Source: Escherichia coli (GTDB taxonomy: Bacteria > Pseudomonadota > Gammaproteobacteria > Enterobacterales > Enterobacteriaceae). Taken from it: DNA of 64,000 nucleotides. The stretch lies in assembly GCF_003790525.1 (NCBI RefSeq), contig NZ_CP033635.1. One strand, given 5' to 3'. Positions 1,906-63,533 of this stretch are shown one piece after another. Numbering within the stretch: position 1 is the first letter of the stretch; the number at the start of each line of letters is the position of its first letter. The position numbers were made by a program, and so were the translations under genes. Under the pieces are notes generated by a model. That model did not search any database, was not told the origin of the DNA, and saw only the letters and a list, made by a program, of their open reading frames with translations.

Positions 1906-4268
<2,363 letters not shown>

Positions 4269-6255: not shown

Positions 6256-7431
6256 ATGCAAAAACTCATTAACTCAGTGCAAAACTATGCCTGGGGCAGC
6301 AAAACGGCGTTGACTGAACTTTATGGTATGGAAAATCCGTCCAGCCAGCCGATGGCCGAGCTGTGGATGGGCGCACATCCGAAAAGCAGTTCACGAGTGC
6401 AGAATGCCGCCGGAGATATCGTTTCACTGCGTGATGTGATTGAGAGTGATAAAGCGACTCTTTTGGGAGATGCCGTTGCCAAACGCTTTGGCGAACTGCC
6501 TTTCCTGTTCAAAGTATTATGCGCAGCACAGCCGCTCTCCATTCAGGTTCATCCAAACAAACGCAATTCTGAAATCGGTTTTGCCAAAGAAAATGCCGCA
6601 GGTATTCCGATGGATGCCGCCGAGCGTAACTATAAAGATCCTAACCACAAGCCGGAGCTGGTTTTTGCGCTGACGCCTTTCCTTGCGATGAACGCGTTTC
6701 GTGAGTTTTCCGAGATTGTCTCCCTGCTCCAGCCGGTCGCAGGTGCACATCCGGCGATTGCTCACTTTTTACAACAGCCTGATGCCGAACGTTTAAGCGA
6801 ACTGTTCGCCAGCCTGTTGAATATGCAGGGTGAAGAAAAATCCCGCGCGCTGGCGATTTTAAAATCGGCCCTCGACAGCCAGCAGGGTGAACCGTGGCAA
6901 ACGATTCGTTTAATTTCTGAATTTTACCCGGATGACAGCGGTCTGTTCTCCCCGCTGTTGCTGAATGTGGTGAAATTGAATCCTGGCGAAGCGATGTTCC
7001 TGTTCGCTGAAACGCCGCACGCTTACCTGCAAGGCGTGGCGCTGGAAGTGATGGCGAACTCCGATAACGTGCTGCGTGCGGGTCTGACGCCTAAATATAT
7101 TGATATTCCGGAACTGGTTGCCAATGTGAAGTTCGAAGCCAAACCGGCTAACCAGTTGTTGACCCAGCCGGTGAAACAAGGTGCAGAACTGGACTTCCCG
7201 ATTCCTGTGGATGATTTTGCCTTCTCGCTGCATGACCTTAGTGATAAAGAAACCACCATTAGCCAGCAGAGTGCCGCCATTTTGTTCTGCGTCGAAGGCG
7301 ATGCAACGCTGTGTAAAGGTTCTCAGCAGTTACAGCTTAAACCGGGTGAATCAGCGTTTATTGCCGCCAACGAATCACCGGTGACTGTCAAAGGCCACGG
7401 TCGTTTAGCGCGTGTTTACAACAAGCTGTAA
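6256..7431 (+). CDS. manA: Mannose-6-phosphate isomerase
   Basis: 391 aa from MQKLINSVQNYAWGS; the tracked ORF starts at an upstream TTG, but the ATG at 6256 has an AGGGA Shine-Dalgarno sequence. Confidence 0.9.
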   Translation: MQKLINSVQNYAWGSKTALTELYGMENPSSQPMAELWMGAHPKSSSRVQNAAGDIVSLRDVIESDKATLLGDAVAKRFGELPFLFKVLCAAQPLSIQVHPNKRNSEIGFAKENAAGIPMDAAERNYKDPNHKPELVFALTPFLAMNAFREFSEIVSLLQPVAGAHPAIAHFLQQPDAERLSELFASLLNMQGEEKSRALAILKSALDSQQGEPWQTIRLISEFYPDDSGLFSPLLLNVVKLNPGEAMFLFAETPHAYLQGVALEVMANSDNVLRAGLTPKYIDIPELVANVKFEAKPANQLLTQPVKQGAELDFPIPVDDFAFSLHDLSDKETTISQQSAAILFCVEGDATLCKGSQQLQLKPGESAFIAANESPVTVKGHGRLARVYNKL

Positions 7432-7531
7432 GAGCTTACTGAAAAAATTAACATCTCTTGCTAAGCTTATTAAAGGCTTATAACACCTTCAGGCGGCCAG
7501 TCCGCCTGATTTCATTTTATGGATAATCATT

Positions 7532-9040
7532 ATGAATAAATCGCTGGTAGCGGTAGGCGTCATTGTTGCGCTAGGCGTAGTCTGGACAGGCGGCGCATGG
7601 TATACAGGCAAGAAGATTGAAACCCATCTCGAAGACATGGTCGCGCAGGCGAACGCGCAACTCAAACTGACCGCTCCTGAATCCAACCTGGAAGTGAGTT
7701 ATCAAAACTATCATCGCGGCGTATTCAGCAGTCAGCTGCAACTGTTGGTGAAACCCATTGCCGGGAAAGAAAATCCGTGGATTAAAAGCGGTCAGAGCGT
7801 CATCTTCAACGAATCGGTTGATCATGGTCCCTTCCCCCTTGCCCAGCTAAAAAAACTGAACCTGCTCCCGTCGATGGCATCAATTCAAACCACGCTGGTT
7901 AATAACGAAGTTAGCAAGCCACTGTTTGATATGGCAAAAGGTGAAACGCCTTTTGAGATTAACTCCCGCATTGGTTACAGCGGAGATTCCAGTTCCGATA
8001 TTTCGCTCAAGCCGCTGAATTACGAGCAAAAGGATGAAAAAGTCGCCTTTAGCGGCGGCGAGTTCCAGTTAAATGCGGACAGAGACGGCAAAGCTATCTC
8101 CCTTTCCGGAGAGGCGCAAAGTGGTCGGATAGACGCAGTTAACGAATACAACCAGAAAGTGCAGTTGACCTTTAATAATCTGAAAACCGACGGTTCCAGC
8201 ACGCTGGCAAGTTTTGGTGAGCGCGTAGGAAACCAAAAACTGTCACTGGAAAAAATGACCATTTCAGTGGAAGGCAAAGAACTGGCACTGCTGGAAGGCA
8301 TGGAGATCAGCGGTAAATCGGATCTGGTCAATGACGGTAAAACGATCAATAGCCAACTGGATTACTCGCTAAACAGCCTGAAGGTACAGAATCAGGATCT
8401 GGGCAGTGGCAAGCTGACTTTAAAAGTCGGCCAGATTGATGGTGAAGCCTGGCATCAGTTTAGCCAGCAATATAACGCGCAAACTCAGGCGCTGCTGGCA
8501 CAGCCAGAAATTGCCAACAATCCCGAACTTTATCAGGAGAAAGTGACGGAAGCCTTCTTTAGCGCCCTGCCGCTGATGTTGAAAGGCGATCCGGTGATTA
8601 CTATCGCGCCGCTAAGCTGGAAAAACAGTCAGGGTGAAAGTGCGCTGAATCTGTCGCTGTTCCTGAAAGATCCGGCAACGACTAAAGAAGCGCCGCAAAC
8701 GCTGACGCAGGAAGTAGATCGTTCGGTTAAATCTCTGGATGCGAAACTGACCATTCCGGTGGATATGGCAACTGAGTTGATGACTCAGGTAGCGAAGCTG
8801 GAAGGTTATCAGGAAGATCAAGCGAAAAAACTGGCGAAACAGCAAGTTGAAGGTGCATCAGCAATGGGGCAGATGTTCCGTCTGACCACCTTGCAGGACA
8901 ATACCATCACCACCAGCCTGCAATATGCTAACGGTCAGATAACGTTAAACGGGCAGAAAATGCCACTGGAAGATTTCGTGGGTATGTTTGCGATGCCGAC
9001 ATTAAACGTTCCGGCTGTACCCGCTATTCCGCAGCAGTAA
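7532..9040 (+). CDS. ydgA: Uncharacterised protein YdgA (DUF945 family), N-terminal signal/anchor
   Basis: 502 aa; hydrophobic N-terminus (LVAVGVIVALGVVWTGGAWY); otherwise a hydrophilic, probably periplasmic protein. Confidence 0.85.
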   Translation: MNKSLVAVGVIVALGVVWTGGAWYTGKKIETHLEDMVAQANAQLKLTAPESNLEVSYQNYHRGVFSSQLQLLVKPIAGKENPWIKSGQSVIFNESVDHGPFPLAQLKKLNLLPSMASIQTTLVNNEVSKPLFDMAKGETPFEINSRIGYSGDSSSDISLKPLNYEQKDEKVAFSGGEFQLNADRDGKAISLSGEAQSGRIDAVNEYNQKVQLTFNNLKTDGSSTLASFGERVGNQKLSLEKMTISVEGKELALLEGMEISGKSDLVNDGKTINSQLDYSLNSLKVQNQDLGSGKLTLKVGQIDGEAWHQFSQQYNAQTQALLAQPEIANNPELYQEKVTEAFFSALPLMLKGDPVITIAPLSWKNSQGESALNLSLFLKDPATTKEAPQTLTQEVDRSVKSLDAKLTIPVDMATELMTQVAKLEGYQEDQAKKLAKQQVEGASAMGQMFRLTTLQDNTITTSLQYANGQITLNGQKMPLEDFVGMFAMPTLNVPAVPAIPQQ

Positions 9041-20775: not shown

Positions 20776-21815
20776 CACGCAAGGCACAGCGTCGCGCGAT
20801 GTTTGGCGGATTCGATGCCCTGCTCAATCAACTCCATTACCTGGATTGCCTGACTTGCCGGAACCGGATTTTCACCATCGCCATTTAACGCATCACGAAT
20901 AGCCGCATAGTAAGCCGGATAATTCCCTGGTACTGTCAACAGCGTTTCTTCGACACGTTCCTCACCTTCCACGCGGGTAAGTACGCCATCACGCATATCG
21001 TAGCCCCAGTCTTCCTGCGGCAGACGCTCGCCATTTTTCAGACGTTCTTCCTGTGGATCGAGGCCATATTTCACATAACTGCCTCGGGATCCATGCACGA
21101 TATAACGTGCTGACTCAGCAGCTGCCAGCATGGTACCGTGTAAAATGACTCGCCGCTGCGGATAGGACAAGATGGCGTGGAAATAATCGGTCGACTGCGC
21201 TCCGGGCCGTAACTGTGCCAAATCAACCGTCATGCTGACCGGTAAACCAAATAGCGTAATGGCCTGATCAAGAAGATGCGGTGCTAAATCGTACCAGATA
21301 CCGCTGCCAGGACCGCCCTGTTCACGCCAACGATCGCGCACCTGCGGACGGAAGCGGTCAAAATGAGACTCAAAGTAAGCAACTTCACCCAGTACGCCTT
21401 CCACGAGCAAACCTTTTAGCGTCAGGAAATCGCTATCCCAGCGACGGTTATGGAATACAGACAGCACACGCCCCAGGCTTTTTGCCAGCGCTTCCAGCTC
21501 TCGCGCTTGTGACAGTGTCACGGTAAAGGGTTTATCAACGACCACATGTTTACCCGCCTCAAGCGCCGCTTTGGCTAACGGGAAATGGGTATCGTTGGGT
21601 GTAGGAATGACAATCAGGTCTATGTTGGGATCGTTAAACAGATGCTTCGGCTCAGAGACAACCGCAACCGTTGGCCAGTCGGCTTTTACTTTTGTTTCAT
21701 CGCTGCTGGAGATTACCGCCAGTTCCAGCCCGGGCGTGCCCGCAATCAGGGGCGCATGGAAGGTTTTGCTCGCATAACCATACCCAATCAACCCAACACG
21801 GATGTTGTCGCTCAT
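20775..21815 (-). CDS. ydgJ: Gfo/Idh/MocA-family NAD(P)-dependent oxidoreductase YdgJ
   Basis: 346 aa from MSDNIRVGLIGYGYASKTFH (Rossmann fold); the tracked ORF begins 13 codons upstream at a GTG. Confidence 0.85.
   Translation of the reverse strand: MSDNIRVGLIGYGYASKTFHAPLIAGTPGLELAVISSSDETKVKADWPTVAVVSEPKHLFNDPNIDLIVIPTPNDTHFPLAKAALEAGKHVVVDKPFTVTLSQARELEALAKSLGRVLSVFHNRRWDSDFLTLKGLLVEGVLGEVAYFESHFDRFRPQVRDRWREQGGPGSGIWYDLAPHLLDQAITLFGLPVSMTVDLAQLRPGAQSTDYFHAILSYPQRRVILHGTMLAAAESARYIVHGSRGSYVKYGLDPQEERLKNGERLPQEDWGYDMRDGVLTRVEGEERVEETLLTVPGNYPAYYAAIRDALNGDGENPVPASQAIQVMELIEQGIESAKHRATLCLA
21509..21521. other. matS site (MatP-binding; GTGACAGTGTCAC) within ydgJ
   Basis: Exact match to the 13-bp palindromic matS consensus GTGACRNYGTCAC; the window is in the Ter macrodomain. 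Confidence 0.65.
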
Positions 21816-43431: not shown

Positions 43432-44031
43432 ATGAACAAACACACCGAACATGATACTCGCGAACATCTCCTGGCGACGGGCGAGCAACTTTGCCTGCAA
43501 CGTGGATTCACCGGGATGGGGCTAAGCGAACTCCTAAAAACTGCTGAAGTGCCGAAAGGGTCCTTCTATCACTACTTTCGCTCTAAAGAAGCGTTTGGCG
43601 TTGCCATGCTTGAGCGCCATTACGCCGCATATCACCAGCGACTGACTGAGTTGCTGCAATCCGGCGAAGGTAACTACCGCGACCGCATACTGGCTTATTA
43701 CCAGCAAACACTGAACCAGTTTTGCCAACATGGAACCATCAGTGGTTGCCTGACAGTAAAACTCTCTGCCGAAGTGTGCGATCTGTCAGAAGATATGCGT
43801 AGCGCGATGGATAAAGGCGCTCGCGGCGTGATCGCCCTGCTCTCGCAGGCGCTGGAAAATGGCCGTGATAGCCATTGTTTAACCTTTTGTGGCGAACCGC
43901 TGCAACAGGCACAAGTGCTTTACGCACTGTGGCTGGGTGCGAATCTGCAGGCCAAAATTTCGCGCAATTACGAGCCACTGGAAAACGCGCTGGCACATGT
44001 AAAAACCATTATTGCGACGCCTGCCGTTTAG
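43432..44031 (+). CDS. nemR: TetR-family electrophile-sensing repressor NemR
   Basis: 199 aa TetR family; first gene of nemR-nemA-gloA. Confidence 0.95.
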   Translation: MNKHTEHDTREHLLATGEQLCLQRGFTGMGLSELLKTAEVPKGSFYHYFRSKEAFGVAMLERHYAAYHQRLTELLQSGEGNYRDRILAYYQQTLNQFCQHGTISGCLTVKLSAEVCDLSEDMRSAMDKGARGVIALLSQALENGRDSHCLTFCGEPLQQAQVLYALWLGANLQAKISRNYEPLENALAHVKTIIATPAV

Positions 44032-62244: not shown

Positions 62245-62277
62245 AGGCGCAACCTTCACGGGTTGCGCCTGTGTTTT
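62245..62277 (+). terminator. Rho-independent terminator after mdtK
   Basis: 10-bp stem AGGCGCAACC/GGTTGCGCCT followed by GTGTTTTT. Confidence 0.65.
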
Positions 62278-63533
62278 TACGCAGGCTGGAGCGTTGCGCC
62301 AATCCCGTCTTCGTCTGGCTGTAGTTTCAGTGCGTTACACAGAGTTTGCCGACTGGCATCTGTTATCTCAACGTGTATATCACCAGTAACTTCCCCTTTC
62401 ACATTGATGAAGTCAGGTGAAATTTCTTTCGCACTGGTTTGCAGGCAAATCGCTCCCTCTCCGCGCAGGCGTTTCACTTTAAGTTGCACATGCGTTGCCG
62501 CACCAGTGATTAGCCACAGTTTTCCGCCATTGAGATTGATGTTACCAACACTGAAAGTGACACTGTCACCTTTTATCGTACTGCCGTCGAGAATCAATAC
62601 ACCGCCCTGCTGTACAGTAATCGTTGATTGTTGCAGATCTGCGCCATAGCCAATAATCATTGAAGCGCCGTCCAGTAATGCAACACTACCGGTCAGTTCA
62701 ACCGGTGCGCGATCTTCCTCTACGACAAAATTTTCGTCCGCGCTGGTGGGTGACAACAGGATCACTGTCCCACCTTGTATTACCGCATTTTCCAGCGTAC
62801 CGGCATGCACTTCAGCCCGACCACCCACATTAACGGACAGGTTTTGCGTCTTACCGGAACTGTAGAGCTGAAGACCATCCGTCCCCAGACGATAGATGGC
62901 TCCATTCTCAACAATAGTGTCAGAGTCTTCACCACCGAGATTATTCATGGTGCCACCAGCAAGCAACGTATCATTGGCTTTCCCCGCCAGCATAAAAACG
63001 CCGCCCTGATTAATCTCACAATTGCTGGCTTCCCCACCTGGATACACCAACAATTCACCACCTTCATCTACCACGACCGCTGAGGTTGTCCCATTGACCA
63101 ACAGGCCACCCTCTTGATCGAGAATAATTTTTTCCGCGCGATGGCCTTCCAGTACACGCAGGTTACCGCCATTTTCCAGCAACAAACCGCAGGCATAACC
63201 TTTATCAACGCTGAATTCACCTTCGGGATGGCGGCCATTAACCGTAGCGAGCGTAGAGAGACTAATTGCGCCTCCCTCGGACTGAACAATATCTGTGGCA
63301 ATGGCACCGTCGCTGACCGATAGCGTGCCATTGTTGCCGTACTGTGTGCATTTGGCGATCCCACCGGTTGCCACTTTCAACCAGCCAGCCCCCGTGACCA
63401 CGGTATTTTCGGCTCTTCCGCCAGCCTCAACAATTAACTCGCCTTCAGTAAGTTGCGTCGCGCCAATGACCTCGCCGGTCTTAACAATTTGCACGTTCCC
63501 GTCGCTCATCAAGTTTTTCGCATCAGATCCCAT
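62277..63533 (-). CDS. ydhQ: YdhQ: AIDA-like beta-helical repeat protein (autotransporter-passenger-related), uncharacterised
   Basis: 418 aa; repeated Gly-rich motifs about 19 aa long (e.g. GGxLxV/GGxAxN); no obvious N-terminal signal peptide and no C-terminal beta-barrel domain. Confidence 0.8.
   Translation of the reverse strand: MGSDAKNLMSDGNVQIVKTGEVIGATQLTEGELIVEAGGRAENTVVTGAGWLKVATGGIAKCTQYGNNGTLSVSDGAIATDIVQSEGGAISLSTLATVNGRHPEGEFSVDKGYACGLLLENGGNLRVLEGHRAEKIILDQEGGLLVNGTTSAVVVDEGGELLVYPGGEASNCEINQGGVFMLAGKANDTLLAGGTMNNLGGEDSDTIVENGAIYRLGTDGLQLYSSGKTQNLSVNVGGRAEVHAGTLENAVIQGGTVILLSPTSADENFVVEEDRAPVELTGSVALLDGASMIIGYGADLQQSTITVQQGGVLILDGSTIKGDSVTFSVGNINLNGGKLWLITGAATHVQLKVKRLRGEGAICLQTSAKEISPDFINVKGEVTGDIHVEITDASRQTLCNALKLQPDEDGIGATLQPA
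62567..62579. other. matS site (MatP-binding; GTGACACTGTCAC) within ydhQ
   Basis: Exact match to the matS consensus GTGACRNYGTCAC. Confidence 0.65.

Follow-up and report, generated by a model that had tools for sequence, protein, structure and literature searches.

The ydhQ palindrome of Escherichia coli SMS-3-5 is almost certainly matS19, a known MatP-binding site of the Ter macrodomain

The 13-bp palindrome inside the ydhQ gene of the analyzed DNA is almost certainly matS19, one of the 23–28 chromosomal matS sites of E. coli, at which the protein MatP docks and which organize the terminus region of the chromosome. The analyzed DNA, a stretch of 64 kb referred to here as the window, matches E. 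coli SMS-3-5 (NC_010498.1) with 100% identity. A motif search of the window detected GTGACACTGTCAC at positions 62557–62569 as an exact match to the matS consensus GTGACRNYGTCAC, and the same 13-mer is present in the ydhQ gene of MG1655. The site is palindromic and is given without a strand. An earlier sequence-only reading had described an exact matS site in ydhQ at 62567–62579. The motif is indeed present, exact and located in ydhQ, but its true place is 10 bases upstream, so that the interval given before takes in no more than the motif's final three bases.

The host gene ydhQ occupies 62277–63533 on the minus strand and encodes an AIDA-repeat protein of 418 amino acids, as judged from the open reading frame, the RefSeq annotation, the translation and the codon alignment. 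It is flanked by mdtK on one side and by the valV/valW tRNA genes on the other. On the coding strand of ydhQ, the motif reads GTGACAGTGTCAC and corresponds to nucleotides 965–977 of the coding sequence. It spans codons 322–326 (GGT GAC AGT GTC ACT, in which the first G and the last T lie outside the motif), and these codons specify the peptide G-D-S-V-T. We know of no role of matS19 in the expression of ydhQ, and the gene is simply the place where the site sits.

Exact matches to the consensus are rare. The window contains only two of them, the ydhQ site and a neighboring matS, GTGACAGTGTCAC, in ydgJ at 21509–21521 (likewise without strand assignment). The distance between the two is 41,048 bp, in agreement with the spacing of about 41 kb proposed from the sequence. 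When the window was shuffled 100 times with preservation of the dinucleotide composition, the mean number of matches to GTGACRNYGTCAC was 0.02, and none of the shuffled sequences contained two or more. The expectation from the base composition was similarly low (λ = 0.016 exact matches per window; P(≥2) = 1.2e-4). These results bear out the earlier judgment that two chance matches in one window are very unlikely. Near-matches were also counted. There was no site with one mismatch (0.39 expected), while six sites had two mismatches and 74 had three. Because the one-mismatch class is empty and exact matches are rare by chance, the two exact sites stand apart from the tail of the background.

Mercier et al. 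(Cell 135:475, 2008) reportedly catalogued 23 matS sites, with matS19 among them. The site of the window can be assigned to this member by its flanks. Positions 62554–62572 (plus strand) are identical, by exact string match, to the published matS19 oligonucleotide AAAGTGACACTGTCACCTT, which includes three flanking bases on each side, and the same 19-mer is found at the ydhQ site of MG1655. Monterroso et al. [quoted passage not shown] 2008 (PMC6538776), and the same oligonucleotide was also used in another study (PMC12756933). Purified MatP bound the matS19 oligonucleotide as a dimer, with two MatP monomers per matS and a Kd of 15 ± 2 nM (PMC6538776). The in vitro binding experiment that had been called for on the basis of the sequence is therefore already published for the exact 19-mer.

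Information on binding in cells comes from MatP ChIP-seq experiments. In K-12, matS sites accounted for 21 of the 26 strongest peaks, and the sole non-enriched site named in the text of that report is matS5 (Nolivos et al. 2016; PMC4738335). According to the text of Seba et al. (2024; PMC10945525), 28 matS sites were obtained by ChIP-seq. The name matS19 was not found among the enriched sites in the texts of these two papers, in which the per-site lists are presented as figures. Our literature search found no paper naming ydhQ together with matS and MatP. The DNA of matP was detected in 5,425 of the 5,426 complete E. coli genomes, a count made at the level of the species rather than on the SMS-3-5 record itself. 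We infer that MatP occupies matS19 in strain SMS-3-5.

The location of the site also agrees with this identification. On the SMS-3-5 record, matS19 lies at 1,517,696–1,517,708 and dif at 1,656,736, about 139 kb apart. In MG1655, the identical 13-mer in ydhQ is at 1,745,151–1,745,163 and dif at 1,590,750–1,590,777, about 154 kb apart. In both strains, matS19 lies within the 0.8–1 Mb around dif that is covered by Ter. Two more exact matS sites, both outside the window, flank dif in SMS-3-5, at record positions 1,649,138 and 1,688,855 (4138–4150 and 43855–43867, respectively, of the sampled segment L025). One of the two is in lsrR and the other is in the dosP-ddpX spacer. The 13-mer core of the spacer site equals that of matS19, whereas its flanks differ, and it is therefore the flanks that tell the two sites apart. 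In total, the 114 kb of DNA sampled at up to about 170 kb from dif (the window together with L025) contained four exact matS sites, versus none in the 137 kb sampled at 566–732 kb from dif. The proposal of a Ter macrodomain matS inside ydhQ is thus supported by the exact consensus, by the identity to the matS19 19-mer and by the distance of about 139 kb from dif. The spacing of 41 kb between matS19 and the ydgJ site is typical for the average of about three matS per 100 kb given in the text of Seba et al. (PMC10945525), and it fits the sparse distribution in Ter, as the sequence-only reading had supposed.

The gene order across the terminus of SMS-3-5 is reversed as compared with that of MG1655. 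The reversal was seen across about 0.925–1.695 Mb of the SMS-3-5 record, and thus over at least 0.77 Mb, a span that includes the window. The yeh, metG, thiMD, gat, mdtABCD, wca and his genes are at 0.93–1.09 Mb of this record, and dif is on the strand opposite to that in MG1655. These features point to either a large inversion spanning dif or a different layout of the record. The reversed orientation is immaterial for matS19, because the site is palindromic.

When the site was compared with the known systems, it agreed with matS19 of K-12 in the 19-mer including the flanks, the host gene ydhQ and the neighbors mdtK and valV/valW. It lies on the same side of dif in the two strains and at a similar distance (139 kb in SMS-3-5 and 154 kb in MG1655). 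The differences are the strain itself, the ydhQ sequence, which is 97.5% identical between SMS-3-5 and K-12, and the opposite orientation of the Ter region. With the other matS sites of Ter, it shares the 13-bp consensus and the location around dif, while the central triplet differs as the consensus allows. Therefore, matS19 is a known and catalogued site and not a new one. It carries little weight as a discovery, since it has been catalogued since 2008 and its oligonucleotide is a standard one for the biochemistry of MatP. The analysis does show, however, that the sequence-only reading had picked out a genuine signal of chromosome organization.

From what is known of MatP, the site in SMS-3-5 would be expected to function as follows. 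A MatP dimer would bind the 13-bp palindrome in a sequence-specific manner, and matS19 would act together with the other matS sites distributed over the 0.8–1 Mb around dif. In the MatP system as it is known, the complexes of MatP with matS remove the condensin MukBEF from Ter by displacement or unloading, tie Ter to the divisome via ZapB/ZapA, and delay the segregation of the sister Ter regions. According to the text of Seba et al., the effect is a graded one that depends on how many matS sites there are and how densely they lie, with saturation at about nine (PMC10945525).

To see how the site is distributed within the species, we classified the 5,426 complete E. coli genomes by exact 32-mer searches. 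The gene is fairly variable, and in the majority of 5,424 E. coli genomes the 201 bp around the site shared 90–99% identity with those of the window strain. The consensus was kept in at least 5,117 of the 5,426 genomes (94%), which fall into four types. The K-12-type flanks with the central triplet AGT were found in 3,802 genomes, and the central triplet GGT, a Ser-to-Gly change at the R position, in 1,113. A flank variant, ACG to ATG, was found in 178, and the flank variant of SMS-3-5 itself, GTA to ATA, in 24. The Ser-to-Gly polymorphism (AGT to GGT; window 62562–62564) hits the degenerate R of the matS consensus, which is therefore retained. In 125 genomes, the consensus is broken by a synonymous change, GAC to GAT, which gives GTGATAGTGTCAC with one mismatch; NU14, MS7163, ATCC 11775 and FDAARGOS_1304 are among the carriers. 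About 180 genomes were left unclassified by the 32-mers. In E. coli 2020CK-00188, ydhQ is annotated as frameshifted, yet a consensus matS, GTGACAACGTCAC, is intact.

The comparison was extended to the other members of the genus. A homologous-protein search did not find YdhQ orthologues outside Escherichia at E ≤ 1e-30. A scan of genome contigs with peptide patterns for YdhQ relatives gave a single locus, the patterns being of a kind that reaches close relatives only. Because orthologues were found in Escherichia only, the comparison with Salmonella ydhQ proposed earlier is impossible. Within the genus, the consensus was present at the same ydhQ codons in five divergent lineages, down to 81% nucleotide identity of ydhQ. 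The central triplet was AAT in Escherichia sp. MOD1-EC7003, AAC in E. ruysiae, GAT in Escherichia sp. E4742, AGT in E. marmotae, and AAT in an 83%-identical lineage labelled as E. coli by its source. The site of E. albertii, ATGACAACGTCAC, has one mismatch to the consensus. An orthologue with 72% identity in ydhQ has five mismatches and is without the site.

In an alignment of seven Escherichia lineages, none of the ten fixed bases of the site varied, and three of these bases are synonymous third positions. The central codon is AGT, GGT, AAT, AAC or GAT across Escherichia, so that the amino acid varies while the triplet is always RNY. Across ydhQ as a whole, 40% of the synonymous third positions were invariant in the seven lineages, versus 3 of 3 in the matS arms. 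Among the 13-nt windows of ydhQ, 21 of 1,245 (1.7%) were invariant at the same ten positions, and 11 of 415 (2.7%) when only the same codon phase was counted. The alignment thus gives moderate support, at about p 0.02–0.03, for a constraint on matS19 beyond the coding requirement; this agrees with the DNA site being under selection and is not decisive by itself. Most of the fixed bases are protected by the protein as well, because the G-D-x-V-T peptide is itself conserved. The expectation that the motif would be retained in orthologues beyond the coding need thus received moderate support within Escherichia from the invariant arms of the seven lineages.

Two other explanations of the palindrome were considered. 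It may be a chance by-product of an AIDA-type β-helix repeat, in which the codons chosen for G-D-S-V-T happen to form the motif without any function at the DNA level. The composition of ydhQ gives some ground for this idea, since near-matches to matS with up to three mismatches occur at 4.8 per kb in ydhQ versus 1.3 per kb in the whole window, and a conserved G-D-x-V-T peptide holds seven of the ten fixed bases anyway. Furthermore, the consensus has been lost in some lineages without a visible consequence. However, an exact match is expected only 0.016 times per 64 kb, or roughly once per genome by scaling, and the exact 19-mer found here is the published high-affinity substrate of MatP (PMC6538776). 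All three free synonymous positions of the arms are also frozen in the seven lineages, versus 40% of such positions in the gene. The survival of the site in the frameshifted ydhQ, where it outlasts the reading frame, and a central codon that alters the amino acid and never departs from RNY are likewise against it. We consider a by-product of the coding sequence very improbable.

It is even less probable that the inverted repeat works through a nucleic-acid structure or through a protein other than MatP, such as by forming a hairpin in RNA or DNA that affects the transcription or the mRNA of ydhQ. The repeat is indeed perfect, with 5 + 5 bases and a 3-nt spacer, and lies inside a transcribed gene. 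A stem of 5 bp with a loop of 3 nt is marginal, however, and is not followed by a run of T. Moreover, the variation between species tracks the MatP consensus, with fixed arms and an RNY center, and shows no compensatory changes in the stem. Both the chance and the hairpin explanations were rejected. The identification as matS19 bound by a MatP dimer is preferred.

The present comparison adds a population picture to this known site. At least 94% of the complete E. coli genomes retain it, as do the sister lineages of Escherichia sampled here with the exception of E. albertii, despite the variable gene in which it is located. At the same time, matS19 is individually dispensable in nature, as an exact consensus is lacking in 125 E. 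coli genomes, in E. albertii and in the 72%-identical orthologue. Its loss through a silent mutation in one clade agrees with the picture in the literature, in which matS sites work as a group and any single one is redundant. The natural loss of matS19 in some lineages also fits the graded effect of matS sites and its saturation at about nine of them.

A more extended scenario can be put forward only tentatively, and we regard it as rather doubtful in its entirety. In this scenario, the fast-evolving ydhQ would be under dual selection at the site, where the amino acid of the central codon (Ser, Gly, Asn or Asp) has changed no fewer than four times with RNY kept, while the synonymous positions of the arms stayed frozen. 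The GAT lineage would represent a natural knock-down of matS19, and the site would have originated inside Escherichia once the lineage of the 72%-identical orthologue had branched off. If this is true, the lineage of 125 genomes with GAT would offer a natural test of how much the loss of a single site matters.

Several minor observations were made on ydhQ and its surroundings. The richness of ydhQ in near-matS sequences, about 4-fold over the window, probably reflects its β-helix repeats, which are rich in Gly, Val, Thr and Asp, and such repeats could be the raw material from which a matS site arises. One or two matches to the ydhQ region were found on records typed as plasmids, and for the exact 32-mer containing matS19 there was one match of this kind; this could be a mis-typed chromosomal fragment. 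The annotation of SMS-3-5 lists ydhS, just beyond the right end of the window (6539–8136 of segment L001), as a pseudogene with a frameshift.
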